Source: a virus (Duplodnaviria; Caudoviricetes). From it: a stretch of DNA of 64,000 nt. The notes under the pieces were generated by a model. The model was not told the DNA's origin, ran no database searches, and saw only the letters and a list, made by a program, of their open reading frames with translations. This document shows, in pieces, positions 27,764 to 63,826 of this stretch. A program made the translations under genes and the position numbers. Location of the stretch: the IMG/VR virus record IMGVR_UViG_3300024259_001623, one strand, 5' to 3'. Each line of letters opens with the position of its first letter. Position 1 is the stretch's first letter.

Positions 27764-27792
27764 TTGCACTTATCAAATAAACTATGTATAAT
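27764..27792 (+). promoter_or_regulatory. Sigma70-type promoter of the tRNA cluster
   Basis: TTGCAC-N17-TATAAT with extended TG, 7 nt before the first tRNA. Confidence 0.75.
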
Positions 27793-50047: not shown

Positions 50048-50314
50048 AATATTTAATATTTGAATTTGCTGGAAAAAAGTTTGTGTGGTGTGATGGAAAA
50101 TCAAGGTATCCATTAGTATATATGGATGTTACTATATATGAACAGGGTAGGGTAGGGGGGTGGCACACAGGAAAATTTCCCTGAACATATCCCAACTATT
50201 TACCGCTATAGGTATATGTGAAACGAGAAAGGCTATTAACCTTCCTCGCTCTTAGGGTTTTTATTAATTATAATTTTTAACAGTTCGTAAAGTTCTTCGG
50301 CCTACCGCATGGCT

Positions 50315-50533
50315 CTACCCTTTCATTAGGTTCGCTATCGTTCTGTTCTTTTCTTTTGTGACTGTCGTGTCAGGGAGATTCGGTTTGCTCAATTTCGTTC
50401 TGACAAGCCAGGCAATGGCCTTGCTTGTCGATACAGTCAACGCAAACTTCAGCGTGACAGCGTTGGCATTGATACAGCCAAGCTTGCTGTTCTTCTGTGC
50501 CGCATTGATGACAACGCGACTCGTAAGGTTCAT
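50315..50533 (-). CDS. Small basic hypothetical protein
   Basis: 72 aa; on the same strand as all genes in this region. Confidence 0.45.
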   Translation of the reverse strand: MNLTSRVVINAAQKNSKLGCINANAVTLKFALTVSTSKAIAWLVRTKLSKPNLPDTTVTKEKNRTIANLMKG

Positions 50534-50539
50534 TGTTCA

Positions 50540-50785
50540 TTAGGATTTCCCTTGTTCTGCTCTTTTCTTTTGTGCTGCTACCGTCAGGGGATGCTTGCGA
50601 ATGGGGAACCGAGCCTTTTGCCGCTCTGCATACTCTGCCAGATTCCTCTTCATTCTGGCGACGGCTTGTGTTGGCGTCAGTCCCATGATCGAGGCGGTGC
50701 GGACCATACCATTGATCAGTCCGTTATGCTCTATCTTGCTGCCCCAGAGCCGCTCTATTTCTTGTCGCCATTCGCCTTTTGTCAT
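50540..50785 (-). CDS. Small hypothetical protein
   Basis: ATG 50785 (MTKGEW) after AAAGGG, downstream of a TCCCTGA motif. Confidence 0.65.
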   Translation of the reverse strand: MTKGEWRQEIERLWGSKIEHNGLINGMVRTASIMGLTPTQAVARMKRNLAEYAERQKARFPIRKHPLTVAAQKKRAEQGKS

Positions 50786-50980
50786 TGTCTGATCCCTTTC
50801 TGCCCTTAACAATTGCGACTATTTGTTCAGGGATTGCTTGAGTTCATCCAAAAACCTTAACGCTTTGAGTTTCAGAATAAAAACATTTTCCTCAAAATTC
50901 CAATAGACGATAATGATAGCGATGGTTGCCAAGAAGTCCCACATGATTATATCCTTTCTGCCTTTAACAATTGCAGAGGT

Positions 50981-51196
50981 TTATTCAGGGAAAGGGTAAA
51001 CGTCCATTGCCCAAGGGAAGGCTTGGTGTAGGCCAGTCAGTGAGCTTTGGCAGAGCGTATGCCGTTCAGCTTGCCCATAGACCCTTATGGATTCTTTTAC
51101 CGTCCAGACCATCGTGGGCTTGTGCTTATTGCCCATCGTATCCAACAGAGTGAATTGCTGTCCGTTGTCTAGTGTGCAGAGTCCAACTTTAGCCAT
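50981..51196 (-). CDS. Small hypothetical protein
   Basis: 71 aa; AAAGGG RBS; ends across a TCCCTGA motif. Confidence 0.65.
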   Translation of the reverse strand: MAKVGLCTLDNGQQFTLLDTMGNKHKPTMVWTVKESIRVYGQAERHTLCQSSLTGLHQAFPWAMDVYPFPE

Positions 51197-51268
51197 TGTC
51201 TTACCCTTTCTGCCTTCTTTAATTATTGGCTTTATTTCAGGGGGCGAAAAATAAATGCAATAAAAAAA

Positions 51269-51308
51269 GATGTAGCCCCTAGCTTTTGCTAGTCGATTGG
51301 GCTACATC
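51269..51308 (-). terminator. Intrinsic terminator
   Basis: GATGTAGCCC/GGGCTACATC 10-bp stem followed by T7 on the minus strand. Confidence 0.75.
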
Positions 51309-51351
51309 TTCGGGAGGTCAGGGGCGACTTCTCGCCTCTGTGACTATGGTT

Positions 51352-51450
51352 CTAGTCGTCCAGTCCGTCCTCTTCGCTGTCCGTGCAGAGATGGAAGGGG
51401 CAAGTTTCGCAGTCGTCGTGGTCGCAGACAGTCTCGTGTGATTCGGGCAT
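51352..51450 (-). CDS. 32-aa Cys/acidic peptide
   Basis: MPESHETVCDHDDCETCPFHLCTDSEEDGLDD; below the ORF-track cutoff; similar to 62163..62315. Confidence 0.5.
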   Translation of the reverse strand: MPESHETVCDHDDCETCPFHLCTDSEEDGLDD

Positions 51451-51515
51451 TTTCGATTCCTTCTGTAAGAGGTTTGTTTCGCTACCCTTAACAATTGACC
51501 GTTACGCTTCAGGGA

Positions 51516-51854
51516 TCAGGACTTGATCGTCGTATGCCAGCGATTCCGGCAGGATGAGCATTTGCAACTGGCATCGCCAGTCCGGGTATTCAGGGTATAG
51601 AGTACCCGGGTGGACTTGCAAGCGGGGCAGGGGACTTCCGGAAGGGGGTCCGGGACGCTGTTGGTATCCTTCCAGGTCCCCCGGTCGCCGGTGTCGTGGG
51701 CGTTCAGGATTGCATCAGCTTCGGCAAGTTCTTCGCATTTTGTGCAAGTTTTTTCGTTGTGGTCGGCGGTAGAGGCCAGGACTTCGTTCCGGTGGGCTTC
51801 CAAGGCGTCGGCGGTCATGGTTTCAAGGGCGTTCATAATTCGGGAAGTGTTCAT
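51516..51854 (-). CDS. Small zinc-finger protein
   Basis: CTKC, CPAC, CKCSSC; AAAGGAG RBS. Confidence 0.75.
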   Translation of the reverse strand: MNTSRIMNALETMTADALEAHRNEVLASTADHNEKTCTKCEELAEADAILNAHDTGDRGTWKDTNSVPDPLPEVPCPACKSTRVLYTLNTRTGDASCKCSSCRNRWHTTIKS

Positions 51855-52049
51855 TTTGTAGCTCCTTTGTTGCCCTTAACAATTGACCGTTATTTATCAG
51901 GGAGATAGTAGGGAAAGAGAGAAAAGGCGATTCCATATCCTTTTTACAGGCCAATACGGGACAATCCAACTCTCTTTCGCCAGAGCCGATAGTTGACTCT
52001 CGGGAACATAAACCCTTCTCTACTGTCTCTTATGATTGATCGTTATTTA

Positions 52050-52160
52050 TCAGGGAATAAAGAATAGCAGGGCTACGACAACAGCAGCGCCAGCAACAGC
52101 AAAAGACGCAAAGCCTATAACCATGATAAGCTCGATCAACGTGAAAGCTGTTTTCTTCAT
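52050..52160 (-). CDS. 36-aa prepilin-type N-terminal methylation peptide
   Basis: MKKTAFTLIELIMVIGFASFAVAGAAVVVALLFFIP*; the stop codon is the TGA of a TCCCTGA motif. Confidence 0.7.
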   Translation of the reverse strand: MKKTAFTLIELIMVIGFASFAVAGAAVVVALLFFIP

Positions 52161-52205
52161 TGTTGTTCACTTCTCTTTTTGCGATTTTTTATTCTTGTTC
52201 AGGGA

Positions 52206-52367
52206 CTAAAGAAACCAGATAAAATTGCTGATGAAAAGGCAAAGAGCAGTAAGATAGAGAACTATTCCTATTTTTATTCTTGTACGGTTAGCTGTCCAGC
52301 CCATCTTACCGACGATGCAGGCGGTGAACAGTAGGGTAAAAGCTACAATCAGTATTATCAAAGCCAT
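52206..52367 (-). CDS. Small two-TM membrane protein
   Basis: MALIILIVAFTLLF...; AAGGAG RBS. Confidence 0.65.
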   Translation of the reverse strand: MALIILIVAFTLLFTACIVGKMGWTANRTRIKIGIVLYLTALCLFISNFIWFL

Positions 52368-52377
52368 TGTTTTCTCC

Positions 52378-52683
52378 TTATGCCTCATAAACGCATACTT
52401 GGCAGTTATTCAGGGGTTCGATCATGCCTCCAGCAGCGTTGACTTGTTCGATTGCTCTCATTAAGACTGGCTCTTGTGGCATACCGTATCGCCCGGTGTC
52501 GCCAGCCCAGATCGACGTTCCGCCGAAACAGGCGATCCACTCGAAAGGTCCATCCCAACAGAGCGTGGGACGTTCGAAACCCTTTTCTTGGCCGAGGATA
52601 GCGGGTTCGCCGTATTCCTTGGCGATGACGTTAAGGGCTTCAGCGAGAGTCTGTAGGAGTTCTTCTTGCTTCTTGTCGGTCAT
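52378..52683 (-). CDS. Hypothetical protein
   Basis: ATG 52683 (MTDKKQEE) after AAAGGGA. Confidence 0.7.
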   Translation of the reverse strand: MTDKKQEELLQTLAEALNVIAKEYGEPAILGQEKGFERPTLCWDGPFEWIACFGGTSIWAGDTGRYGMPQEPVLMRAIEQVNAAGGMIEPLNNCQVCVYEA

Positions 52684-53018
52684 TGTTATTCCCTTTCGGT
52701 AGTAAACAATAGATAGGGTTATAACAGGGAATTGGCTCGCCGACGATCCATCCATACAGAGAGAATGAGCAAGATCATGCCGCCGGGACCAGCGATGATT
52801 AACAGACTTGCAAGGACAACATCGAGGATTGTCATGAGTTCCATTGTTTGTTCCCTTTCAGTCTATTTCTTTTATGTTTGTTCTTCAGGGATTTAATCGG
52901 CACAAAACATCAAAACAAGCCCAATAACCCACATAACCATATTGCCAGTACATAGACCGACAATCAGAAGAATCAATCCTGCTAGTGCCATCTCTTTATC
53001 CTCTTATTTACAGGGATA

Positions 53019-53216
53019 TTATCCCACTCTGAATTTCTTATCTCTTTCCATAATTCGTTTGACAGTTGGCCAGGCCCACTCATAGCTGGCTCCGCTTTCA
53101 ATATCGACAACATGAGCGAAGTCGTGGAGTCTTCCAGCGATCATAGCTGGTTGATCGTTCAGTAAGCAGCTTTCGCCGGCGTACTGGTCTGCAATTTGTT
53201 GGATTGTTTCGTTCAT
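53019..53216 (-). CDS. Small hypothetical protein
   Basis: 65 aa; leader shared with 53470..53715. Confidence 0.7.
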   Translation of the reverse strand: MNETIQQIADQYAGESCLLNDQPAMIAGRLHDFAHVVDIESGASYEWAWPTVKRIMERDKKFRVG

Positions 53217-53414
53217 ACTCTTTCCCTTTTGTGTTTTTTATTCAGGGAGTCTTTGCTTCATAGCCCGTCGTACTTTTCTTCGGGCAAGGGTTTTCATTTT
53301 CCGGACAGAAGTTCTCCAAGGATTACAACAAGGGCAATGCCAACCACCAGGGCCAGAGTGAATATATCTATGATATATCTTTCCGAGTCCTTTTTTCCTT
53401 CCGGGCATCGTTGC

Positions 53415-53761
53415 CATTGTTTGTCCTTTCTACTCTTTCCCTTTTGAGTTTTTTATTCAGGGACGAAAATCAACCCAGCGGCCCTTGTTCCGGTGTATTG
53501 TAGCTGGGCCGGGGTTGTAAAGCCATGTGTTTATCGAACTTAGAAGTAAGCTGGATGCTGTCTATGGCATCTTTCGCATCTACCCCGGATACGTAACCTA
53601 CGCAGCGACCGGACGGGGTGTGAACAGTCCAGAGCGGGTAAGCGGGCTTGTCGCAATCGGGGCAGCGGAAGTTGTTTGTCAGTGTTCCGCAAGAGCATTC
53701 TCTGAGTTGATCCATTGTTTGTCCTTTCTACTCTTTCCCTTTTGCGTTTTTTATTCAGGGA
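53415..53761. repeat. 49-nt direct repeat (53415-53463 and 53713-53761) flanking one gene
   Basis: CATTGTTTGTCCTTTCTACTCTTTCCCTTTTG[A/C]GTTTTTTATTCAGGGA with one mismatch; partial third copy at 53216-53248. Confidence 0.95.
53470..53715 (-). CDS. Small protein with N-terminal zinc ribbon
   Basis: CSCG...CPDC. Confidence 0.7.
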   Translation of the reverse strand: MDQLRECSCGTLTNNFRCPDCDKPAYPLWTVHTPSGRCVGYVSGVDAKDAIDSIQLTSKFDKHMALQPRPSYNTPEQGPLG

Positions 53762-53896
53762 TTCTTTTTCAACCAGCAAATCAAGTCGATAATCCCTAAA
53801 AAGACAATCGTTAAGGAAATTGCCAGTCCTTTTTCTAGTGGAGTCATTCCCAGATCCTTTCGGCTTTTTTTATTTTGATTTATTTTTCAGGGAACG

Positions 53897-54256
53897 TTAC
53901 TGATTAGCCTTTTCATTGGCCTTTGTTTGTGCTCGGAGTAATTTTTGCATAAGATTCGCTGGCACCGGAGTCTTTCCGAGAGCATTGATAAAATCATCCA
54001 AAGCATCAGAAAGGTTACTAACCGATATCTGCAAGTCGTCGAGGTCTTGCAGTCGGTCGCCGATTCTTGTTTCTCGTTCGATAATATCGGCAAGTTGTGT
54101 TCTACGCCATTCTCTATCTGTTGGAACATCTGGCGAGCCATCAGGGAGCATTTGATCGAAAACAAATTTTTCGACCTTTATTCCTGCAACGTTGGCAAAA
54201 TGTGACTTAAGCATTTTTATCTCCGTTTGTTTTCTTCGCCGGGAATCTTTTGCCAT
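53897..54256 (-). CDS. Hypothetical coiled-coil protein
   Basis: 119 aa; the true start may be MLKSHF. Confidence 0.6.
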   Translation of the reverse strand: MAKDSRRRKQTEIKMLKSHFANVAGIKVEKFVFDQMLPDGSPDVPTDREWRRTQLADIIERETRIGDRLQDLDDLQISVSNLSDALDDFINALGKTPVPANLMQKLLRAQTKANEKANQ

Positions 54257-54389
54257 CTGGATAATACCATCTGGCTTCTTTCCCTACTGAGACAAGATAG
54301 ACAACAGACGGGCAGGGAGAACCGTATCTAGGTTCTGTCTTGACAATTGTTCCTCTCCCATCTTCTGTTCTAAAACGTACATGCTTCAT
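54207..54389 (-). CDS. Small hypothetical protein
   Basis: 60 aa; AAGGAG RBS. Confidence 0.6.
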   Translation of the reverse strand: MKHVRFRTEDGRGTIVKTEPRYGSPCPSVVYLVSVGKEARWYYPDGKRFPAKKTNGDKNA

Positions 54390-54424
54390 CCTGATATGAA
54401 AACTCCTTACTTATTCAGGGATAA

Positions 54425-54516
54425 CTGGGCCGGTAGGAGTCGAACCTACAAACGAAGGATGCGCAACCCTTCAACCGCCTCTCCGGCGGCGCGTCTGCCA
54501 ATTCCGCCACAACCCA
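54425..54516 (-). tRNA. Atypical class II tRNA (Leu/Ser-like) with a 5-nt anticodon loop
   Basis: TGGGTTG/CGGCCCA acceptor, Leu-type D arm GCGGAATTGGCAGACGC, CCGCC-GGAGA-GGCGG, 7-bp variable arm, GTAGG-TTCGACT-CCTAC. Confidence 0.75.
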
Positions 54517-54771
54517 ATAAAAAAGAGGAAAGGGTGAAAGGAACTACTCCGTCACTTTCTGCCCGCTTGCCTTCAGGCCCCTTTCCTTTTCGCAAAAACA
54601 TTTATCTCATGGCCGCAACCAAACGTTGTATGAGATAAAGAGGTCTTTGCTTGGATGCTCAATCCATTCTGTAGCAATTTTATCATTCTGGTCAGGGACT
54701 CTCGGCAACACCAATCCGGGCCGCAACAAGGCCGGGAATCCCTCTAAACCTTGCTGCGACCCTAGATATTG

Positions 54772-55101
54772 TTACGCCGGCGGTTCGACAATTTCGTTCG
54801 GCTGAAGGAAAAACATCTTATTTTCGACCGCGTTCTTTGCATCTCGCAAACTAAGGCCCGTCAAGTGACGGAGATACTTGATTGCCGGAATCTTGCGGCC
54901 GGAACTGACAAGATGCTGCATCTTGGCGTGATCGTCGCGTTCGATGGAAAAATCGGCGATGACGATAAGCGACTGATTGGCAAGATGACCCTCTTCCAAA
55001 ACTCGCAACGCCTGCTCCCGCATATCGCGGGTCATCGACGCCGAAGGGCAAACCAAAATGCTTCGGCTCAAGTCCATCGCTTGTATGGTAAAGCTGTTCA
55101 T
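54772..55101 (-). CDS. Protein with ribosomal protein L7/L12 C-terminal-like domain
   Basis: GRKIPAIKYLRHLTGLSLRDAKNAVE matches the bL12 CTD consensus KIxxIKxxRxxTGLGLKEAKxxVE. Confidence 0.7.
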   Translation of the reverse strand: MNSFTIQAMDLSRSILVCPSASMTRDMREQALRVLEEGHLANQSLIVIADFSIERDDHAKMQHLVSSGRKIPAIKYLRHLTGLSLRDAKNAVENKMFFLQPNEIVEPPA

Positions 55102-55161
55102 TGTTCATTTCCTCTTTGTAAGGGGTTTTCGTTCTTACCCTTTGTTATTGTTTGGGATTGT

Positions 55162-55422
55162 TCAGGGAAACTTTTTCAACAGCCGAAAATAGGCATAATC
55201 GGAAATCATATCGCTATTATGGACCTTACGCACAATTACGTTGTCCAGTTCTGCGTCTGGAAGGTTCGGGTCGTCGCACAAAAACATTTCGACGGCTCCA
55301 GCGGGCACATTCTCGCAATCGTAGGGAATCTGCTTCACGCCGCCGCGCCAAACTTGCTTGCCCCACAGCTTGCCGTCGCAGTTTTCTGGTCGAACGCCAG
55401 TATTGAAGTAAAAAGTTCTCAT
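55162..55422 (-). CDS. Small hypothetical protein
   Basis: 86 aa; AAAGGGA RBS. Confidence 0.7.
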   Translation of the reverse strand: MRTFYFNTGVRPENCDGKLWGKQVWRGGVKQIPYDCENVPAGAVEMFLCDDPNLPDAELDNVIVRKVHNSDMISDYAYFRLLKKFP

Positions 55423-55463
55423 TGTTTATTCCCTTTCTGCCTTTAACGATTGTTGTTATGGTT

Positions 55464-55754
55464 TCAGGGAGAAACTATAGCTTGATCTGAGTTAAACCGA
55501 CCGTCGAAAAGTTCGTCCACATGATGCAAAGAAACAAAATCGAGAGAGACACAACCCTCGAAAATATCGCCATTAGGAAAATGGACCTTAACCCTAAGAA
55601 GCCTGTCAGTCTTGGAATGATAGCCTAAAATATCTATAAAACGATGTTCATTTTTATGATGATTGACAGCAGGCAGTGGAGTATATCGCAGAGCCTCGCC
55701 ATGTTCCCCATTCCAGAGCTTACGAATTTCGTCATCAAGAGTATATCGAATCAT
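55464..55754 (-). CDS. Small hypothetical protein
   Basis: 96 aa; the stop is the TGA of the motif at 55464. Confidence 0.6.
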   Translation of the reverse strand: MIRYTLDDEIRKLWNGEHGEALRYTPLPAVNHHKNEHRFIDILGYHSKTDRLLRVKVHFPNGDIFEGCVSLDFVSLHHVDELFDGRFNSDQAIVSP

Positions 55755-55803
55755 TTTCTTATCCTTTCGATCTTTACAATTGAATATTATTCGTCAGGGA
55801 AAC

Positions 55804-55878
55804 TGGGCCCTGCTGGACTCGAACCAGCAACCGACGCTTTATGAGAACGCTGCTCTAAACCTGTTGAGCTAAGGGCCG
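55804..55878 (-). tRNA. tRNA-CAT, Ile2-like
   Basis: CGGCCCT-TA-GCTC...GAGC, GCGTT-CTCATAA-AGCGT, GCTGG-TTCGAGT-CCAGC, AGGGCCC-A. The body resembles bacterial tRNA-Ile2; C1:C72 mismatch; no CCA. Confidence 0.85.
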
Positions 55879-56109
55879 GTGCGGCTGGAGGGGGGTTAGC
55901 CCCTCCGAGCTTGTTCCTCCTGGATCAGGTCGATAACGTCGGCGAAGTGGTTGTAACCGAGCGACCCCTTGGTATAACGCTTAATCTCGCGTTCGGCATT
56001 CGTCAGATCGTAGCGAAGGGCGGCATCCGTCTTGCTGGTGAGAAGTCCCGATTCCTTGAGTTGCGTTGCGGTCATGGCTTTATCTCCTTTGTTAGCCTAC
56101 CGTTAATAA

Positions 56110-56298
56110 TTATATCGTCGGATTCAGGGAATTATAGACATTGTTCAAGACAGCAAAGGTAAAAAGTGCCGTTGCCATGTTGAAAATACATACTCCCCCA
56201 TTAAACCATGAAGCAGAATGAATAGCAAAAACAGCATTGGCAATGCCGCTGAAAAAATTGAACATACCGAGGAACCACAAAAATACCATACTTTTCAT
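56110..56298 (-). CDS. Small two-TM membrane protein
   Basis: Hydrophobic 62-aa ORF; AAAGGA RBS. Confidence 0.6.
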   Translation of the reverse strand: MKSMVFLWFLGMFNFFSGIANAVFAIHSASWFNGGVCIFNMATALFTFAVLNNVYNSLNPTI

Positions 56299-56516
56299 CG
56301 TTTATTCCTTTCGACCAGAAGAGATTTGTTGTTATTCTTCAGGGGAATTGTTCTCTTTAGCTTGCTTATCAAAAACTTTGTCTAAAGCCTGGAATAACAT
56401 TTTCTCTGAAACATCGCGGCCAAGACAGTAGCCGGCCCACGCTCCAACAGCGAATATGCCGATTAAAGCTCCGATTAGAATAGCAATCGTCATAGCATTA
56501 TTCCTTTGAGAGTATC

Positions 56517-56828
56517 TTAATACCTATCCCAACGCTTTAGTTCTTTTAGGATCAGGGATTCATCATCGGCGTGATTTTCTTTGTTGAGAGATACAGACTT
56601 TCCCCAACAAGAGACAACCAACTTGATTTGGGGGTCGATAATTCCTCTTTCTAATTCTTTTTCTGTTGGGTCTATCTCGCCGGCCATAATACGACAGAAG
56701 CCGGCCGATCTTACTAGGGATTGGTCCCAATTGCTAGGAACCATTGCGGCATGGTTTAAGTCAGCCGAGAAGACAACAACGGAGAATTGATCGGTAAACA
56801 ACTCAACAACAATGTATTTCATATCCAT
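56517..56828 (-). CDS. Hypothetical protein
   Basis: 103 aa; VVFS...H..M...VRSAGFC...CWGKSVSL. Confidence 0.75.
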   Translation of the reverse strand: MDMKYIVVELFTDQFSVVVFSADLNHAAMVPSNWDQSLVRSAGFCRIMAGEIDPTEKELERGIIDPQIKLVVSCWGKSVSLNKENHADDESLILKELKRWDRY

Positions 56829-56863
56829 ACAGATTATCCTTTTTCCGCGTCTTTTCAGGGAAG

Positions 56864-57067
56864 TTACCTATTGCCTAGCTTATAGAGAATAATCATAAAC
56901 AATAGGATTACGACAGCCATAAAAAGGCCACCAAAGCCCCACAGAGGCGACAAAACGACAAACCATGTGAAAGCATGGACACCTGCCAACTTGGTCACCA
57001 GAAGGTAAGCAAACGACAGAATCCAAGCGATAAACATCCAGGCCGGGGCCGTCAAGTCGAATTTCAT
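56864..57067 (-). CDS. Small two-TM membrane protein (WFVVLSPLW motif)
   Basis: ATG 57067 after AAAGGA. Confidence 0.7.
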   Translation of the reverse strand: MKFDLTAPAWMFIAWILSFAYLLVTKLAGVHAFTWFVVLSPLWGFGGLFMAVVILLFMIILYKLGNR

Positions 57068-57069
57068 TT

Positions 57070-57291
57070 TTATTTCCTTTTTCTGAGAACCCAACAGCTT
57101 TTCGCCTTGGGATCTTCATGCACGAACATTTCAACAGCATCGCCGACAGACGGAGCGAACCCCCAGCAACAACTGGTGTGGAATTCTCCCAAGTCATCGA
57201 CTTCCAACAACTTAGCCCCATCACGGTTAATGAAACCAGTGATAGTCCCACAATTGTTCGACGGTCGTTTGTAGAAACTTGTCATTTTCAT
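57070..57291 (-). CDS. Small hypothetical protein
   Basis: ATG 57291 (MKMTSF). Confidence 0.6.
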   Translation of the reverse strand: MKMTSFYKRPSNNCGTITGFINRDGAKLLEVDDLGEFHTSCCWGFAPSVGDAVEMFVHEDPKAKSCWVLRKRK

Positions 57292-57332
57292 ATTACTTCT
57301 CTTTTTTCTTTCTTTGTGCAGGGGAAAAATAC

Positions 57333-57381
57333 GAAGGGAAGCCGGCCGCAATTGCTACCCCGAGGGAGCCGACTTCCCTTC
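57333..57381 (-). terminator. Long hairpin, probable terminator or processing site
   Basis: GAAGGGAAG/CTTCCCTTC stem followed by GTATTTTT on the minus strand. Confidence 0.6.
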
Positions 57382-57590
57382 TCAAAACCATAATTAATCG
57401 CAATCTCTTATTATTTATTTTTTAGAGTTGTCAGAGCATGACTTTTCTCCTCGTGGGTTAGCAAATTATACTTGACATTCTTCTCTATAGTATACTTAGT
57501 AATTTTATGTTAATTGTCAGGGAGGCATAGTTTCCTTTCTACTATCTCTCTTAACCATACTTTACTATACTTGTCACATTTTCAGGGATG

Positions 57591-57818
57591 CTAATTGTTG
57601 TCGATATTGATAGTTACGAGCGTATGCCCGCCATCATGATCGACAGAACTAACAATGTCTGTGACCTTACCAAAAGCCAGCGTGTCACCAGGGAACTGTA
57701 CGATATACGTTTCTCCGATAGCTGGTATCCGAGCAGGGGCAACATCGAACAGATGGAATTGGTCGTTGTCTACTTCTTTGGCAAACTTAACTTGAATATT
57801 GATCGTAGCTTTAGACAT
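57591..57818 (-). CDS. Small hypothetical protein
   Basis: 75 aa between two motif copies. Confidence 0.65.
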   Translation of the reverse strand: MSKATINIQVKFAKEVDNDQFHLFDVAPARIPAIGETYIVQFPGDTLAFGKVTDIVSSVDHDGGHTLVTINIDNN

Positions 57819-57839
57819 TTTGATATCCTCTTCAGGGGT

Positions 57840-58007
57840 TTACCAGTTATTTACTTGATCGTCCGTTATACGATCATTTCTGTGAAGATCGTCAAGAAAA
57901 ATGACCCATGCTTGCCTCATTGCTGGTCTGTCATTTCTGCCATGTTGTTTCAGGATTGAAGGTCTGATTGTTTGGCAGAACTCTGCTTGGGCTTCTTGTC
58001 TTGTCAT
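57840..58007 (-). CDS. Small hypothetical protein
   Basis: MTRQEAQAEF...AMRQAWVIFLDDLHRNDRIT after AAAGGA. Confidence 0.65.
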   Translation of the reverse strand: MTRQEAQAEFCQTIRPSILKQHGRNDRPAMRQAWVIFLDDLHRNDRITDDQVNNW

Positions 58008-58035
58008 GGTTATTTCCTTTTTCGGGCAAAAAACA

Positions 58036-58067
58036 GGGGAAGGCTCAGGTGTTCCCAAGCCTTCCCC
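58036..58067 (-). terminator. Intrinsic terminator
   Basis: GGGGAAGGCT/AGCCTTCCCC stem followed by TGTTTTTT on the minus strand. Confidence 0.7.
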
Positions 58068-58077
58068 TTTGACGTTT

Positions 58078-58254
58078 TTACATAATGCCTTCATGGATAA
58101 GCCAGGAAACGTGGCCGTGTTCGCACCAGCCGTCCGGCTCGACCATGCAACCGTCTGTGGCTTCACAAACGCCGTCAAACATCCATTCTTCCAGTTGGTC
58201 CATACTCGGTTGCTGATCGGTCGGCGTCTTGTAGGGATACTTGGGACGGTCCAT
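58078..58254 (-). CDS. 58-aa putative metal-binding protein
   Basis: MDRPKYPY...GVCEATDGCMVEPDGWCEHGHVSWL; more plausible than the track's alternative frame. Confidence 0.65.
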   Translation of the reverse strand: MDRPKYPYKTPTDQQPSMDQLEEWMFDGVCEATDGCMVEPDGWCEHGHVSWLIHEGIM

Positions 58255-58314
58255 TTTTCGACTCCTGAAAAGGGGTTTCGTTCTCGACTACCTTTTATCA
58301 TTTTGATTGTTGTA

Positions 58315-58620
58315 TCAGGGAGTAATAATCAACTTGGCTTCTTTGACCCAATAGCAGTGGTCTTCTTCATCCCACTTAGACGCCAGGCCAAAAAAGAAAT
58401 GATCAAAACCATGTTTGACTGGTTTGTGCCATCCTTGTTTTCTGGCTTGACTTTTCGACGGGTAAAGTCCAGCAGCCACAAGCAAGTCAGACCAAAAAGC
58501 ATCGCCGACGACAACGAATGTAAACCATTCATCTGTATCAGGGATCGGGCCGAAAAACGCATCTCGGTCTGATTGGTTTACTCCATTGCCGACTAGAAAG
58601 TTTATTGATCTTCTTGGCAT
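58315..58620 (-). CDS. Small protein with S4-like RNA-binding motif
   Basis: DLLVAAGLYPSKSQARKQG resembles the S4 domain of TyrRS (AGLxxSxSEARRLIxQG). Confidence 0.55.
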   Translation of the reverse strand: MPRRSINFLVGNGVNQSDRDAFFGPIPDTDEWFTFVVVGDAFWSDLLVAAGLYPSKSQARKQGWHKPVKHGFDHFFFGLASKWDEEDHCYWVKEAKLIITP

Positions 58621-58676
58621 AACGTTATTTACTATTTTGTTTGATTTGTCAGGGAGATTATTTTAGGCGAAAAAAT

Positions 58677-58704
58677 AAGGGAAGCCAATTTCTCAGCTTC
58701 CCTT
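58677..58704 (-). terminator. Intrinsic terminator
   Basis: AAGGGAAGC/GCTTCCCTT stem followed by ATTTTTT on the minus strand. Confidence 0.7.
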
Positions 58705-58735
58705 ACCCTCCTCCAGCTTGTTTTAAGCCCCCTTG

Positions 58736-59047
58736 TTACAGAACAAGGCGGGTCGCCGCCTCATCAATCATACTGCCCTTAGTCCCTACCAACCGCCGCC
58801 CAAGGCCCTCTACGGCGTATCGGCGTGACGTTGGCGTATCCTCATCCGTTCGGGCGAGCTTGAGGATGGAAAGCCGAGCATTGCCGTCAACAAGAATATT
58901 GATAACGTCAAACGTCTTGCCCTTGGCTTTCGGGCCGTTGAGCTTATGCTTGATAACTCTCAGAGCGGAACGGGGGCAAAAAACTTCCGATATGCCCAAC
59001 TTGATATTGGCGACCTTACGCTTCTTTGCCTTCTTTTGCTTTGCCAT
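58736..59047 (-). CDS. Basic hypothetical protein
   Basis: 103 aa; GGAG RBS. Confidence 0.7.
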   Translation of the reverse strand: MAKQKKAKKRKVANIKLGISEVFCPRSALRVIKHKLNGPKAKGKTFDVINILVDGNARLSILKLARTDEDTPTSRRYAVEGLGRRLVGTKGSMIDEAATRLVL

Positions 59048-59118
59048 TGTCTTTTCTCCCAGAAAAAGGTTTTTGTTGTTGTCCTTTGCGACTACCTTTT
59101 ATGATTTCAATTGTTTTA

Positions 59119-59334
59119 TCAGGGAGATGGAACATCAGCATACGGAGCAAAATCTATCCGTATCGTTCCATTAGTTGCCACAACATGTTGATACACTTCC
59201 CCATCTTTTGTGTACCTATCCAAACGTTCAGGATGAAAACCTTTAACCCTAGTACAGAACCAATTAGCAGCCGAAACGCAGCCCATACGTCTTTTTTTCT
59301 TTTTCCACTCTTTAATCGCTTCTTCTATTCTCAT
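59119..59334 (-). CDS. Small hypothetical protein
   Basis: 71 aa; the stop is the TGA of a motif. Confidence 0.65.
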   Translation of the reverse strand: MRIEEAIKEWKKKKRRMGCVSAANWFCTRVKGFHPERLDRYTKDGEVYQHVVATNGTIRIDFAPYADVPSP

Positions 59335-59516
59335 ACCCTAACCATTTTTGTTTTTCTAATCAGGGAGAATATATAAGATAAGAGAGAACGTTCAGCCCCC
59401 TATCGCAAAAGAGAGGGCCGAACGTTTTTGCAATCAATCGCCCCTAACCTCTATGGTTAGGTAACTCTGCCGACGCTCATAATTGGCCGACAGAGCAACG
59501 ATTGCTCTCCCTTTTA

Positions 59517-59625
59517 GGCTCAAGTATTGGACTTGTCAGCGCTCTGCCAACTGAGCTATATCCCGGCTTTGCCGAGATAGCTGGACTCGAACCAGCGACC
59601 TTTGCATATCCAATAACGACTTGCC
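59517..59625 (-). ncRNA. Circularly permuted tRNA mimic, YrlA-type Y RNA candidate
   Basis: 5' to 3': closing stem, T-arm (GCTGG-TTCGAGT-CCAGC), acceptor stem capped by an AAA loop (TATCTCGGC/GCCGGGATA), D-arm (GCTC-AGTTGGCA-GAGC), closing stem (TATTGGA/TCCAATA; terminal GGC/GCC). Confidence 0.75.
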
Positions 59626-60027
59626 GCAACAGGACTATGCCTGCCCTTGGCCTAAATTCATTTTTAAGAAAAATGCAAGGGCGAGGCTTACTCCGCTGTA
59701 AGCCCCATCAGGAATTTTCCTTAGCCCTTGCTGACATCTTATTACGATTTCTGACTTGTTTTCAGGGAGACAAGGACAAAAATTATTTATCAATTTTCGT
59801 AGAAGATTTTCTCTTGTTTGTTTAGTATTTTAACTTTTTGTTAAAAGTACCAAGATACTTGTCTTTTTAGTCCTTGCTATGTCGGGGAGAGGAAGCTCTA
59901 TGCCGAGGTGTCTAGCTTAACAGGCATCGCTTCCTCTCCCCTAAACTGTACGTCCTTTGCGTCCTCTGCTCTCTTTTAGCATTACCCTTTTCAATTTTCG
60001 CTTGCTGGTCAGGGGAAACGGCTCCCC

Positions 60028-60606
60028 TTACCGCCGAACGATATACGCTTGCTTGTTCATGGTAATCGCTACGATGCTGGCGACCTTATAGTCGCGGAGA
60101 ATGATTTCCTTGTCGGTCTGTTGCGTTGCCGCCCGTCGCGGCTTGCTGAAGAATTCCCTTGCATCGGCCAACGTCGCAGCGTCCAATTCCTTGCCGTCGA
60201 GGCCGATATACTTGGCGTCAAGGGACTTTTCGACCTTCAATTCGACGTAGAATTGTCCCTTATGCTCGATCAGCGGCGTACCGTCGATCCGAGTTCCCCA
60301 TTTTCGAGGCTCGGCGACGAAAACGTCGGTATTGCCTTCTCGCTGGCGTTGGTTGTTGACCGAGTTGGCGTAACTCCAGCCGATCATGCAATTAACGCGA
60401 GAAACCTTAAACATCTTGCCGACAAACGGATTGCCAGTTTTCCGCATTTTCGGATCGGTTTTGGTTACGACCGTTACGAAATTGGCGCCCTTGTTGGCCC
60501 GCAGCATCGCAACCAATTGAGACTCATCAATGGCGATAACCGTCTGCTGGCCAGAAGTGTCGATAAAGAGTTGTTCGCTCGCAGTAATAGTCGCTGTCTT
60601 GCTCAT
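60028..60606 (-). CDS. Hypothetical protein
   Basis: ATG 60606 (MSKTAT) after AAAGG; WSYANSVNNQRQREG...RKWG...LIEHKG. Confidence 0.8.
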   Translation of the reverse strand: MSKTATITASEQLFIDTSGQQTVIAIDESQLVAMLRANKGANFVTVVTKTDPKMRKTGNPFVGKMFKVSRVNCMIGWSYANSVNNQRQREGNTDVFVAEPRKWGTRIDGTPLIEHKGQFYVELKVEKSLDAKYIGLDGKELDAATLADAREFFSKPRRAATQQTDKEIILRDYKVASIVAITMNKQAYIVRR

Positions 60607-60666
60607 TTTGTAACCTTTCTTTGTTAGGACTACCCTATACAATACCAGATTCTTTTTCAGGGAGAA

Positions 60667-60864
60667 TTAGATATTGATAAGTTTCACGCCCCATTGACAG
60701 CCGTAAGTTTTGAGAATTCTATCGTGTTCGTCCACTTCTGCGACATTATCGACAGAGATAGCAAAATCGCAACCTGTCAAATTTTCGAGAATATCGGCTT
60801 GGGCTTCTTCGATAGAATGATATTCTCCCACGCTTTCGTCGCTGTACCAAACCTTAATAATCAC
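60667..60864 (-). CDS. Small acidic hypothetical protein
   Basis: 65 aa; AGGAG RBS. Confidence 0.65.
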   Translation of the reverse strand: MIIKVWYSDESVGEYHSIEEAQADILENLTGCDFAISVDNVAEVDEHDRILKTYGCQWGVKLINI

Positions 60865-61183
60865 AATTCATCTCCTGTTCTTATATCTGACCATTCTGTA
60901 TCTACAATTTTTGTTTTGCCATTGTCAAAGCTGAAATGATAATCAGCATCAGAACCAACATCTCGCCGGGCATCTTCCATATCGCCTTCATGCTCAACAG
61001 TCAATTTGATAATGGCGTAAAAAGTTGATCGCATTGTTATATCCTTTCAAGGATAGGGATTTGTAAAAAATGAGTCAGGGAGATAGAAGTTGGTACTATC
61101 TCCCTCTGCATAATTTTTCGTTGTATCATAGGGTAGGAACGAAAAATTCAATGCAGGAGCTTTATTAAGCTCAACTCGTTATA

Positions 61184-61510
61184 CTACTCTTTATTTTTGT
61201 CGTTTTCTTCAGGGAGTTTCTCGCTTTTTGTCGCGCGATATTTATTTGGCTTACCGTTTGTAGCGTCAGTATGCCCTTCCTCGTAAAAATGTTGTGCAAC
61301 AGGGACCATAGATTTAACTGCATCTGCCTTGCCCGATAAATAAGCCGCCGGCAATACAGAAATCATCAAAACGCTCAAAGCAAGCAACGCCCCAGCGACG
61401 ACGTTTATTCTGAGTTCTTTATTATCAATCATAACCAGACTGCTTACGCATCCAGCCAAGGCTCCCATCGAAATAACCGTACAAGCTGTTAAGAAAAATA
61501 TCAGTCCCAT
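61184..61510 (-). CDS. Two-TM membrane protein (GxxDA family)
   Basis: Two hydrophobic helices, then EEGHTDATNG. Confidence 0.7.
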   Translation of the reverse strand: MGLIFFLTACTVISMGALAGCVSSLVMIDNKELRINVVAGALLALSVLMISVLPAAYLSGKADAVKSMVPVAQHFYEEGHTDATNGKPNKYRATKSEKLPEENDKNKE

Positions 61511-61544
61511 TTTGTTGTCCTTTCGTGTTACCTATCTGTATTTT

Positions 61545-61826
61545 CTACTCTTTTTCAGGGATCAATTCCCACTTCTCTTCGTGGACCTTTTGGTACTTAA
61601 TATCACCTTTGATTGCGTCAATTTGCCCTTGCTTGTAACCTTGTTTGTGGCCGTATTCTTCTCTGGCATTCCCTATGTCATGGCACAACAGAGGGACAAG
61701 TATTAGAAGGGAAAAAATCAAACATCCTCTAATGCTTGTAGAGATAAAGTTGTTATCTAATGACGCCAACAAGCAAAGAATAATTATGAATATCGCAGCC
61801 CAAGCGAATAATGCAATTGATAACAT
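61545..61826 (-). CDS. Two-TM membrane protein (GQIDA family)
   Basis: GYKQGQIDAIKGDIKY. Confidence 0.7.
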   Translation of the reverse strand: MLSIALFAWAAIFIIILCLLASLDNNFISTSIRGCLIFSLLILVPLLCHDIGNAREEYGHKQGYKQGQIDAIKGDIKYQKVHEEKWELIPEKE

Positions 61827-61838
61827 GATAAAACCTTT

Positions 61839-62135
61839 CTAGCCCATTAGTTCCTTTAGGCTCTTCGGTGTCCAATACATATCCCTTTCGACAGGGAGGC
61901 CCATCGGGCCGCGTAACTTCAACAGTTCCGACAACGAGAAATACCCCAATTCTTTCTCGAAACCATCGACCAAGCCGAAAAACCTATCAACTCCGTCGAA
62001 TTCGGTGATATACCAAGTCCAATTCCCATCAGGGGTGAAGAGTTTGACAACTGCCATAGTCTCTTCAAGAGACTTTTTCTCATTGGCATACAGCGGAGGA
62101 ATCTTAACTTTGAGTGCTTTGGTCAAAAGTTTCAT
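61839..62135 (-). CDS. DUF2958 family protein
   Basis: KLFTPDGNWTWYITE...FFGLVDGFEKELGYFSLSEL...ERDMYWTPK. Confidence 0.85.
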   Translation of the reverse strand: MKLLTKALKVKIPPLYANEKKSLEETMAVVKLFTPDGNWTWYITEFDGVDRFFGLVDGFEKELGYFSLSELLKLRGPMGLPVERDMYWTPKSLKELMG

Positions 62136-62162
62136 TGTTGTTCCCTTTCTACTCGTAATGAT

Positions 62163-62315
62163 TTAATCTTCAATATCAGGGAGATCGTGCTGGAACTCCT
62201 GATCCAAGAAAAGGTCAAAAGAATCATAAGAATCTGGCTCCTCCCAAAAGTAGGGGCATCCATCGCAAGTCGGACGGTCACAAGTCATACAAGCATCGTT
62301 TTCGCCATGAGCCAT
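62163..62315 (-). CDS. 50-aa Cys/acidic peptide
   Basis: MAHGENDACMTCDRPTCDGCPYFWEEPDSYDSFDLFLDQEFQHDLPDIED; AAAGGG RBS. Confidence 0.55.
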   Translation of the reverse strand: MAHGENDACMTCDRPTCDGCPYFWEEPDSYDSFDLFLDQEFQHDLPDIED

Positions 62316-62346
62316 TTTCTTACCCTTTATGTTGGTTGTTGATTGC

Positions 62347-62544
62347 CTACAGAAGAGGGTTTATTCCCGCTTTAATCAGGGAAAGATCAGTGATAGCATC
62401 GTTAAGATACTCATATTCGATATAGTCGCCGTCTGGAGCGTGTCGTTTGCTGCTCAGACGGAACATCTTACCGCAACGCTCGAAAGTATAGCCTTGCTTC
62501 CTGGCTCGCTTAGAGAGCCTCTTAAAATCATTGTCCACTTTCAT
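62347..62544 (-). CDS. Small hypothetical protein
   Basis: 65-aa ORF. Confidence 0.6.
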   Translation of the reverse strand: MKVDNDFKRLSKRARKQGYTFERCGKMFRLSSKRHAPDGDYIEYEYLNDAITDLSLIKAGINPLL

Positions 62545-62833
62545 CTTCCTTAGTTGTTTCCGATTTGACTATGCTTCTATAGGCATCTATTTGCCCTTTA
62601 ACGTATCCCTTTTGTTCTGCTAAAATCAGGGAACCATTCTCTTTTTCGCATTTATCATATCCTTCATGCCAGGCGATATTTGTAAAGCATCCAAACGCTC
62701 CAGCAGTAACCATAAGAAAAATAACGAAAAACACAAGTCCCCAACCGTCATCAGACGGAGCAGATACGCATGTCATGGATAACAATACCAGAAGCAACGC
62801 CAAAATGATGAAGAAAATTCCTAGCCCTAACAT
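62528..62833 (-). CDS. Two-TM membrane protein (GQIDA family)
   Basis: GYVKGQIDAYRS. Confidence 0.7.
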   Translation of the reverse strand: MLGLGIFFIILALLLVLLSMTCVSAPSDDGWGLVFFVIFLMVTAGAFGCFTNIAWHEGYDKCEKENGSLILAEQKGYVKGQIDAYRSIVKSETTKEDESGQ

Positions 62834-62862
62834 GGTAAATCCTTTCTATTTTCAGGGAGTTT

Positions 62863-63120
62863 TTAATCCGTCAGTATCTCTTTCTTTTTTTCGATACCTT
62901 CTCTATATCGTTCAATACGCCTAAACTCTATTTTCGAAACTTCTCCATCGTTCAAAGCATCTTCGATTTTTTCTTTGAGTTCAGGGAATTCTGCTTGCCA
63001 TTCTTTCAGAGAATCGTATTGAGACTCGGAAATTTCTTGACCATCCAAAACTGCGCCAACAAGAAGCAACGTGACCAAAGTTACGACAACAAGTGCGCAA
63101 CTCATTGCAAATTCTTCCAT
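62863..63120 (-). CDS. Single-TM membrane protein
   Basis: ATG 63120 (MEEFAM) after AGGAA. Confidence 0.65.
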   Translation of the reverse strand: MEEFAMSCALVVVTLVTLLLVGAVLDGQEISESQYDSLKEWQAEFPELKEKIEDALNDGEVSKIEFRRIERYREGIEKKKEILTD

Positions 63121-63124
63121 TTTA

Positions 63125-63406
63125 TTATTCCTTCTTTTCCCAAGCATCATTGTTAGAGGATTCTTTTTGTTCGTAATAAATCTCGCCATTGAGTGCATCA
63201 ACTTGGCCAGACTTATAACCATTTTCCCATACATGAGTTGTGAGCATTAAGATGGGGGTCACAAAGCACAATACTGCAAACAGGAATGGGACTAATGCCA
63301 GTCCATTCGGCTCTTTTTCATCAAAGAGAATGCAACTCCCGACTGCAAACAGCATACAGCCAAAAAGAAACATGATTGAGTAAACAACAACTGCTATCGT
63401 GAACAT
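63125..63406 (-). CDS. Two-TM membrane protein (GQIDA family)
   Basis: GYKSGQVDALNGEIYY. Confidence 0.7.
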   Translation of the reverse strand: MFTIAVVVYSIMFLFGCMLFAVGSCILFDEKEPNGLALVPFLFAVLCFVTPILMLTTHVWENGYKSGQVDALNGEIYYEQKESSNNDAWEKKE

Positions 63407-63431
63407 TATTTTTCCTTTCAATGTTACGTAA

Positions 63432-63573
63432 TACCCCTGGCAGGACTCGAACCCGAAACTCCACCATCATACATTTTCTTTATTGGAAGGCAGGGAGGTC
63501 CAGTCTCTAGCTTCCCATAATCATTATGTATTCTGGACATACGGTGTTGTTTTGCCAATTAAACTACAGGGGC
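63432..63573 (-). tRNA. tRNA body with 77 nt in place of the 7-nt anticodon loop
   Basis: GCCCCTG/CAGGGGT acceptor, GTTT-AATTGGCA-AAAC D arm, ACACC/GGTGG stem, CGGG-TTCGAGT-CCTG T arm. Confidence 0.7.
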
Positions 63574-63826
63574 GTGTGCTGTCCCATATACCGGCCCTAT
63601 CTCAATCTATTTTCTTTTACTCAGGGACAGCTATGAATAAAAGATCTTACTGAGACAGGGGAGAGTTTCCATTTTGGCCCAGGATTTTCAAACGATACTC
63701 TCCAAACGTATCCTTATCGGGCTGTCCTTAACGCATTATACTAGCTCCTTTCATTATTAGTAGCTTATATTATTGCTCTTACGTTAAGTATTAATTTCGT
63801 GTGTTGTTTCAGGGAGAACTACTTAA

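Follow-up and report, generated by a model that had tools for sequence, protein, structure and literature searches.

What is the role of a short motif that recurs, always in the same orientation, at almost every gene of a dense gene array? This question is raised by a stretch of 64,000 nucleotides (from here on, the window) of a virus of the Caudoviricetes, IMG/VR record IMGVR_UViG_3300024259_001623, in which the heptamer TCCCTGA punctuates a long series of very small genes that occupies the right end of the window. Judging from the sequences of this and related phages, it is very probable that the motif is a promoter, and a real, phage-lineage-specific class of putative promoters is strongly supported.

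The phage of the window, hereafter phage A, is a huge and uncultivated marine virus known from seawater metagenomes. The longest public contig carrying its genes measures 434,625 nt. Among 50,697 phage records, megablast gave no close relative with either the array or the left arm as query, and IMG/VR contained no copy of an exact 37-mer taken from the window. We extended the window 37.6 kb past its end through exact-protein look-ups on public contigs, with 0 mismatches in the overlaps, and the resulting composite has 101.6 kb; positions past the window are given in window coordinates. In this stitched extension the mini-gene array continues to ~95.6 kb, forming a 45-kb block. Genes in the array are crude calls from lists of open reading frames (ORFs), and independent calls on public contigs were also used. 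The motif is read on the minus (coding) strand, where TCAGGGA of the plus strand reads TCCCTGA, and the first T of the heptamer is taken as position 0.

Abundance, orientation and placement of the heptamer

TCAGGGA appears 45 times in the window, versus 6.8 ± 2.8 times in dinucleotide-preserving shuffles (maximum 14). Between 50370 and 63815 there are 40 exact copies on the plus strand and 0 on the other one. The first-pass annotation of this DNA had counted about 48 copies of the hexamer TCAGGG in this region, with essentially none in the opposite orientation, and both statements hold: we counted 49, and the nine opposite copies of the whole window all fall outside the region, the nearest at 50179. 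A second box (see below) was looked for at the five heptamers located elsewhere in the window and was absent, and these five look like chance occurrences. The strand bias is maintained along the 45-kb block (~95.6 to 50.3 kb), with 64 forward copies of TCCCTGA and a single reverse one, and in the whole composite the figures are 66 and 5.

The copies are associated with gene boundaries, as had been noted from their position at stop codons and before ATGs. The degenerate form YCCCTGW is found at most 95 nt upstream of 36 of the 42 array genes in the window, with a mode of 46–49 nt, and in eight copies the heptamer itself supplies the TGA stop of the upstream gene. Farther upstream in the block, the genes provided with YCCCTGW drop to 14 of 28, 5 of 18 and 2 of 17.

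A second box at a fixed distance

The heptamer is only the first part of a composite element consisting of TCCCTGA, 12 bases and AATTGT, with a fuller second box, AAW-G-WAA-GGG-YAG, at a fixed distance. When 40 sites were aligned on the heptamer, A was found at +19 in 32 and at +20 in 35 of them and T at +21 in 27, followed by G at +23, WAA at +25 to +27 and GGG at +28 to +30; of the 40 sites, 30 then have a pyrimidine at +31 and 31 have a purine at +32. The spacer is A-rich, no conservation was seen upstream of the heptamer, and after +32 comes an AAAGGA Shine-Dalgarno sequence and then an ATG near +47. The two-box pattern written in the first-pass annotation matched 10 sites versus 0 in 100 shuffles, and nine of its twelve listed examples fit it; the other three (54692, 56124, and 63809) are near variants.

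To score the second box, a leave-one-out matrix over positions +17 to +34 was used, with all block positions as background. Among the 64 sites of the block, 31 scored over the 99th and 46 over the 95th background percentile. The spacing proved to be rigid in this formal alignment, since the best offset among the sites with a good second box was 0 in 33 cases, ±1 in six and larger in two. The reverse test gave the same picture: of the high-scoring second boxes on the forward strand, 28 have an exact heptamer 19 nt upstream and nine one with a single mismatch (CCCCTGA, TCCCTGT, etc.), versus none, exact or with one mismatch, for the 63 hits on the reverse strand. Two boxes in gene-sense orientation with a spacing fixed to ±1 bp correspond to what is expected of a bipartite promoter of the sigma-70 family. 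In this family ~16–18 bp would be expected between the −35 and −10 cores, and the gap from the end of the heptamer is 12 bp to AAW and 16 bp to GTWAA, either of which might hold the −10 core. Outside the conserved positions the cassettes are 60–85% alike (a single pair, 53414/53712, reaches 98%), and therefore they are not recent copies of each other.

Start codons and probable start of transcription

The distances from the heptamer to the ATG are bimodal, with one class at +46 to +51 with a Shine-Dalgarno sequence and another at +32 without a properly spaced one. The second class includes the ATGs at 59334, 53216, and 54389 (all +32), together with two at +35, 58620 (behind the heptamer 58649–58655, without Shine-Dalgarno) and 79593, the latter beyond the window. 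The gene that begins at 59334 (59119–59334, 71 aa) is also called on public contigs. In contrast to the cassette with the ATG at 53216, its two paralogous cassettes (53463 and 53761) have a Shine-Dalgarno sequence and the ATG at +46. Among the 107 sites counted in phage A, seven have a start codon without a Shine-Dalgarno sequence at +32/+33, three of them being flagged as Shine-Dalgarno-like owing to the adjacent GGG of the second box.

A message that begins with its AUG needs transcription to start at that point, so these apparently leaderless genes would place the start ~32 nt downstream of position 0, and the pyrimidine/purine preference at +31/+32 is consistent with it. We infer that transcription would begin at this purine, 6 nt after the second box as originally delimited and near the 7–10 nt that had been predicted.

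Terminators, RNA genes and the contrast with sigma-70 promoters

The motif follows two of the four clear strong terminators in the block at only 20–25 nt (Table 1). Transcription beyond a terminator has to be initiated anew, and a processing signal at such a place would find no RNA to act on. Downstream of the terminator at 51262–51313 the whole succession of CCCCTGA, second box, Shine-Dalgarno and ATG is found. The strongest terminator of the array, at 58025–58068, has no motif within 190 nt.

It had also been claimed that the motif precedes tRNA and non-coding RNA genes. This is true for the candidate YrlA-like Y RNA, which has the heptamer 59762–59768 and a good second box upstream, and for a tRNA-like RNA with a long insert. 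It is not for the two tRNA genes of the array, in which the motif lies 2–4 nt past the 3′ ends; at tRNA-Met the heptamer 55794–55800 begins 4 nt past the end. Between the boxes and the YrlA-like RNA there is no Shine-Dalgarno sequence, ATG or ORF, which argues that the boxes are not translation signals. Several contigs share only the T-arm-like core of this RNA (59539–59600) and diverge on both sides, which suggests that the core is a conserved module.

The motif bears no resemblance to the sigma-70 consensus (TTGACA-N16–18-TATAAT), and sigma-70-like sites are under-represented in the array (13 versus 21.8 in shuffles). The use of sigma-70 promoters in the left arm, also pointed out before, was confirmed by the near-consensus promoter of the tRNA-Met/Asp/Pro cluster (27764–27792, TTGCAC-N17-TATAAT). 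The host enzyme would thus be of the ordinary type, and the TCCCTGA class separate from it.

Table 1. Coordinates and description of the array, its representative cassettes and the associated signals and RNA genes in the window.
Feature	Start	End	Strand	Description
Near-consensus sigma-70 promoter	27764	27792	+	Contrast, outside the system; 7 nt before tRNA-Met/Asp/Pro cluster
Array end	50048	50314		Convergent plus-strand genes met; composition step from ~33% to ~46% GC
Mini-gene array	50315	64000	-	~42 co-oriented genes (30–192 aa) plus tRNA and small-RNA genes; ORF lists, crude gene calls
First-box heptamers	50370	63815	-	40 exact TCCCTGA plus 9 variants ending in CCCTGA (8 are CCCCTGA); single orientation
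Canonical cassette	50783	50833	-	Heptamer 50827–50833, second box CAATTGTTAAGGGCAG (score 15.7), Shine-Dalgarno AAGGGA, ATG 50785 (+48)
Intrinsic terminator	51262	51313	-	Hairpin of −21.8 kcal/mol plus T7 (T-run 51268); CCCCTGA 25 nt later, then second box, Shine-Dalgarno, ATG
Leaderless-type cassette	53214	53248	-	Heptamer 53242–53248, ATG 53216 (+32)
tRNA-adjacent cassette	54387	54421	-	Heptamer 54415–54421, 3 nt past tRNA-Leu 3′ end; ATG 54389 (+32); second box poor
tRNA-Leu(GAG)	54424	54517	-	Inside the array
Canonical cassette	55420	55470	-	Heptamer 55464–55470 provides the TGA that ends the preceding gene; then second box, Shine-Dalgarno and ATG 55422 (+48)
tRNA-Met(CAT)	55804	55878	-	Within the array, with the 56130 cassette and its 59-aa gene lying upstream
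Strongest array terminator	58025	58068	-	15-bp stem plus T6; no motif within 190 nt
Intrinsic terminator	58670	58708	-	−18.1 kcal/mol plus T6 (T-run 58675); TCCCTGA (58649–58655) 20 nt later
Leaderless-type cassette	59332	59366	-	Heptamer 59360–59366, second box, ATG 59334 (+32), no spaced Shine-Dalgarno
YrlA-like Y RNA candidate	59513	59626	-	RF02553, 38.8 bits, E 1e-5; gathering score of 69 not reached
tRNA-like RNA with long insert	63432	63573	-	54 nt downstream of heptamer 63621–63627

Related phages use the same layout with different heptamers

The 192-aa protein encoded in the array at 60028–60606 has many relatives on long contigs, and two of them allowed us to compare the motif among lineages. 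Phage B (L246, L248, and L249; 40 kb stitched from one 46.9-kb contig) has a relative of this protein 60% identical, and possesses a co-oriented mini-gene array along which GC (0.32 to 0.42) and motif density rise as in phage A. Its heptamer is YCCCCGA, present in 64 forward and no reverse copies. The second box lies at identical positions, with T at +21 in 61 of the 64 sites, T at +22 in 59 and G at +23 in 52. An ORF of at least 40 aa starts at exactly +32/+33 in 21 of the 64 sites, versus 1.2% of random positions, and 15 of these 21 starts lack a Shine-Dalgarno-like sequence. Among the data at hand this is the strongest single argument for a putative start site at +32, and about a third of the phage B array genes appear to be leaderless.

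Phage C (L247, a 177-kb contig deposited within a genome assembly), with a relative of the protein 57% identical, uses CACCTGW, in 30 forward copies and one reverse, with no clearly fixed second box. The heptamers of the three related lineages (YCCCTGW, YCCCCGA, and CACCTGW) are mutually exclusive. Phage A has 107 forward and five reverse copies of YCCCTGW, with only three forward YCCCCGA and four forward CACCTGW, and phage B has only three forward YCCCTGW beside its own 64. The change between A and B is a T to C at position 5. Dozens of sites changed wholesale between sister phages imply a trans-acting reader whose specificity changed along with them.

More distant conservation was found through a sigma factor encoded in the block of phage A (described below). 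Relatives of this protein are few, one 62% identical and one group ~42% identical, and in IMG/VR only generic sigma factors were retrieved. Two contigs of the ~42% group (L131 and L141, ~33% GC) contain TCCCTG(A/T) four and three times in gene orientation, with a single reverse copy across both. Two of these sites read TCCCTGT followed 12 nt later by a AAWTGTWAAGGG-type box, i.e., the same composite with the same spacing. In both contigs the start codon of an Rnl1 RNA ligase lies at +32 without a Shine-Dalgarno sequence, which nearly all neighbor genes have, and the N-termini of the two ligases align from M1. Both contigs also share with phage A the succession of Rnl1, sigma, one gene and RNA ligase. 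Pattern scans of IMG/VR, JGI metagenomes and species genomes gave single chance hits only, besides one mobile element with five identical copies in a metagenome-assembled genome (MAG) of Bacteroidetes.

Which factor could read the motif

The proposal of a dedicated, non-sigma-70 promoter at nearly every gene, one of two explanations offered initially, is supported by several indirect lines: the rigid pair of boxes, the starts at +32, the succession of terminator and motif, the use at non-coding RNA genes, the distant conservation and the presence of a true sigma-70 promoter elsewhere in the window. We propose that box 1 (YCCCTGW) would lie at about −32 to −26 and box 2 (AAWTGT, then WAA-GGG) at about −13 to −8. 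At most cassettes the RNA would start ~3 nt before the AAAGGA Shine-Dalgarno, leaving the ATG at +46 to +51, while at some it would start at the ATG or within 3 nt of it, giving a leaderless message. Since nearly each mini-gene and several small-RNA genes have their own copy, the array might be transcribed as many short units. The reader would be a phage-encoded specificity factor acting on the host core RNA polymerase, and a phage origin is most likely because sister phages use mutually exclusive heptamers within one layout; we hold it as probable. No polymerase family appears in the Pfam listings over 101 kb, and the conservation consists of two boxes 12 bp apart, whereas a promoter for a single-subunit phage polymerase would show one contiguous block from −17 to +6.

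A sigma factor was looked for beyond the window and one was found in the block, ~24.5 kb beyond the window end. This protein of 282 aa, our leading candidate for the reader, passes TIGR02937 (83.7 bits versus a cut-off of 42.9), and its Pfam matches cover regions 2 and 4 only. Compared with Escherichia coli sigma-70, it keeps the FSTYATW melting motif and carries the changes W434S, Q437K, and T440A, of which positions 437 and 440 are the readers of the −12 base. In the 4.2 helix it has R-P-W-A-K-H-H instead of R-E-R-I-R-Q-I. The non-canonical residues thus lie where E. coli sigma-70 contacts the −35 and −12 bases, and these alterations in regions 2 and 4 make a new −35 and −12 specificity plausible. 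The W-A-(K/R) core of the helix is kept in the ~42% relatives, which keep TCCCTG too, with variation in the second His.

Some observations weigh against this picture. In each of the three phages in which the sigma gene can be seen, a TCCCTGA site lies upstream of it, and if the sigma reads the motif, another way to start its expression is needed; a 347-bp region at the upstream edge of the block, with a possible host-type promoter, could provide a first, host-driven transcription of the gene. By analogy with gp28 of SPO1, the in-block sigma could equally be a product of the TCCCTGA regulon that reads a later promoter class. No sigma gene was found in 40 kb of phage B, with 30 kb walked upstream. 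The 12 bp that separate the heptamer from AATTGT are few for a region 4/region 2 pair and come closer to the MotA-dependent geometry of T4. There are also copies inside ORFs, as the first-pass annotation had remarked: 10 heptamers lie >100 nt inside called ORFs, versus 1.25 expected from codon shuffles, and 12 of the 13 listed intragenic copies are in the frame xTC-CCT-GAx. All 13 have a second-box score over the background median and eight over the 90th percentile; we assume that they may be internal or decaying promoters.

Altogether, the complete statement, a lineage-specific bipartite promoter read by a phage-encoded factor of the sigma type, is one that we favor with moderate confidence. 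The more specific identification of the reader with the in-block sigma is tentative, and we hold it with less than even confidence.

Alternative explanations

The heptamer could also be bound at about −30 by a phage activator of the T4 MotA/AsiA kind, with a host or phage sigma reading only the downstream box. Its center, ~29 nt before the probable start and 12 bp from the −10-like box, reproduces the geometry of the T4 middle promoters, and the common second box and different heptamers of phages A and B fit a common −10 reader with a diverging activator. However, AATTGT is a poor match to the TAnnnT required by the host primary sigma, whose type is seen as TATAAT at 27787, and MotA_activ, MotCF, and AsiA are absent from the precomputed Pfam hits of ~150 genes over ~50 kb, a weak argument given that such proteins diverge fast. 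An activator of this sort appears to us quite unlikely. We give even less credit, regarding it as decidedly improbable, to an alternative sigma of the host, in which case the array would display a hijacked host regulon signal. In its favor, with a host factor as reader the expression of a phage sigma would not have to be bootstrapped. Nonetheless, mutually exclusive heptamers in three phage lineages are easier to obtain with a phage-borne reader, and the composite pattern gave only single chance hits and the repeated MAG element in 185,579 species genomes, although with a pattern so strict this counts for little. A promoter of the Bacteroidetes type (consensus TTTG / TAnnTTTG) was considered separately and rejected, as neither spacing nor bases fit.

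Two further explanations dispense with a promoter altogether. A signal at the RNA level, with long polycistronic transcripts in which the motif marks endonuclease processing sites or acts as a translational leader element, would agree with the heptamers just past both tRNA 3′ ends and with the frequent overlap with upstream stop codons, and base pairing is conceivable between UCCCU and the AGGGA present in some Shine-Dalgarno sequences. Yet little read-through RNA is expected where motifs sit right after strong terminators, ATGs at exactly +32/+33 without Shine-Dalgarno (21 in phage B) fit a start site and not a 25-nt leader lacking one, and the second box is present before non-coding RNAs too. 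Heptamer and Shine-Dalgarno never covary, and the pairing of the heptamer in predicted RNA folds is 0.54 versus 0.48 for random heptamers; lacking any predicted excess, a hairpin or anti-Shine-Dalgarno pairing of the heptamer was rejected. The RNA-level explanation is, in consequence, very improbable. The strict orientation, the enrichment deep in ORFs and the similarity of the cassettes, which makes recombination possible, would in turn suit a polar signal on the DNA (Chi-like, or serving translocation, packaging or nicking) or a site whose main role is recombination that shuffles the cassettes, and one low-depth contig of run X14 shares 59064–59375 with the window and diverges on both sides. 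A polar signal, however, needs neither a second box at a fixed spacing nor a fixed distance to the start codon, and the placement found here does depend on gene starts. Sequence resembling the second box tends to be present at the intragenic copies too, the motif is accompanied by neither inverted repeats nor stem-loops, and recombination between cassettes would be a by-product of promoter repeats, as has been proposed for the repeated cassettes of T4-type phages (see below). We consider this explanation extremely improbable. The polar protein-loading signal put forward initially as the other explanation is not supported either, since the heptamers keep to gene starts and are paired with a second box, which an orientation signal does not need.

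Composition and gene content of the block

Motif density and third-codon-position GC (GC3) both increase toward 50 kb. In the direction of transcription, density goes from ~1 per 3 kb at the upstream end of the block to 3 per kb at the downstream end, and GC3 takes values of 0.27, 0.32, 0.33, 0.39, 0.47, and 0.51, with 0.25 in the genes of the left arm. A possible origin of the gradient is an influx of genes from GC-richer sources, or else a host-like codon usage of the first-expressed genes in a phage rich in tRNAs. At 50.2 kb, the composition step is bridged without differences by contigs of two runs, X2 (6155 nt) and X11 (973 nt), so it is not an assembly artifact.

The array is almost invariant among seawater runs, and the read comparison indicated near-zero polymorphism. 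Indels between runs lie after 52078, where they involve a 15-nt repeat unit (CAACAGCAGCGCCAG) that keeps the frame, and after 50033 (9 nt). Single low-depth X14 contigs match only 59064–59375 and 57062–57314, with unlike sequence on both sides, and the first of these segments spans from just upstream of one promoter cassette to just beyond the next. Such contigs may come from a related strain with mosaicism at the level of cassettes, or may be artifacts of assembly.

The upstream edge of the block is marked by the 347-bp intergenic region mentioned above (L128:5536-5883, ~96.05–95.71 kb, beyond the window), which holds several sigma-70-like sites and two sets of three repeats, one of tandem GTATACAGTATACAC(TTTT) units containing the palindrome GTATAC and the other AATATGTCTGGAG-like. 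Possible roles of this region are those of an operator, an early promoter or an origin. Further inside (L127:1586-7720, ~90.5–84.4 kb) there is a cluster that points to RNA repair and counter-defense functions, formed by an Rnl1-type RNA ligase, the sigma factor, a second RNA ligase (PF09414), a metallophosphatase and a GT4 glycosyltransferase. Downstream of it are a PARP-domain protein, GIY-YIG and HNH endonucleases, and NADAR, SprT-like and DUF2958 proteins. Two mini-proteins, at 54772–55101 (minus strand) of the window and at L127:14925-15503, have weak matches to the C-terminal domain of ribosomal protein L7/L12 (E 1.4e-5, just under the Pfam cut-off), and are possible takeover proteins directed to the ribosome or to a translation factor.

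The motif would outline a regulon of this 434-kb phage, defined by sequence and with ~64 to 100 units, marking likely host-takeover and counter-defense genes inside the array and upstream of it, such as the RNA ligases, PARP-like, NADAR, SprT-like and DUF2958 proteins, and the Y RNA-like and tRNA-like RNAs. It could be used to annotate genes and assign them to time classes in this phage group. The three lineages with a swapped first box represent a natural experiment on the co-evolution of promoter and reader, and possibly a source of orthogonal sigma/promoter pairs, and the many leaderless genes that phage B seems to have bear on the translation machinery of its host. A broader idea, unlikely as a whole in our view, is that sister huge phages run orthogonal transcription codes, with a shared architecture, a lineage-specific first box and a co-evolving phage factor, their arrays being promoter-tagged zones of gene capture. 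If so, each acquired mini-gene would receive a portable promoter, often with a leaderless message, and the rise of GC3 from 0.27 to 0.51 would record the influx or age of the genes, or the adaptation of the first-expressed ones to the codon usage of the host.

Comparison with known promoter systems

A literature search for the heptamer matched primer sequences only, with no published description of the motif. In phage SPO1, numerous promoters serve a tightly packed group of small host-takeover genes. These are strong host sigma-A promoters, unlike the new consensus found here. Our preferred reading, a promoter served by a phage-encoded sigma-type factor, resembles SPO1 gp28 and gp33/34 and phiEco32 gp36, phage proteins of the sigma-70 family that redirect the host core polymerase to promoters with novel boxes, although the link between sigma and motif is only a candidate one in our case. 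With the promoters of the T7, T3, SP6, and K11 polymerases the motif has in common a shared architecture in which base changes are lineage-specific and mutually exclusive. T7-like promoters are, however, a contiguous block of 17–23 bp read by a single-subunit polymerase, in contrast to the two separated boxes described here and to a pyrimidine-then-purine context at the predicted start that is typical of a bacterial polymerase.

The T4 middle promoters have a Mot box centered at −30, 11–13 bp from the −10 box. The TCCCTGA class resembles them in the upstream box near −30, separated by ~12 bp from a −10-like element, and in being a phage-specific class that would work on the host core polymerase. 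The sequences are different: TCCCTGA is not (t/a)(t/a)TGCTT(t/c)a and AATTGT is not TAnnnT. T4 employs MotA/AsiA for these promoters, and neither was seen here in the 50 kb examined through precomputed Pfam hits.

The repeated promoter cassettes of T4-type phages, an analogy already drawn in the first-pass annotation, turned out to be the closest known architecture. These early and middle promoter stem-loops (PeSLs and PmSLs) are repeated units, each with a promoter, a Shine-Dalgarno sequence and an ATG, that separate orphan genes in hyperplastic regions. Their consensus is lineage-specific and they have been proposed to take part in the shuffling of genes (Arbiol et al., 2010, PMC2839356; Comeau et al., 2014, PMC4122927), and cassettes with Mot boxes (PmSLs) have been described in phage nt-1 (PMC4122927). 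Here too, composites of promoter, Shine-Dalgarno and ATG are found at approximately one per gene between small orphan genes, in variable regions, with enough similarity to recombine and a consensus that changes with the lineage. Of the exchange at cassette borders typical of PeSLs there is a single possible indication, the diverging low-depth X14 contig at 59064–59375, the other runs being near-identical to the window. PeSLs differ in carrying a stem-loop just upstream of the promoter, and either sigma-70-type boxes (TTGACA-N17-TATAAT or close) or a Mot box. In our array the 45 nt upstream of the motif fold no better than random positions (mean −6.2 versus −6.3 kcal/mol, p = 0.88), which indicates that there is no stem-loop, the boxes are of neither the sigma-70 nor the Mot type, the spacer is of 12 bp and some genes appear to be leaderless. 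The cassettes of this phage thus work like PeSLs without being members of the PeSL family.

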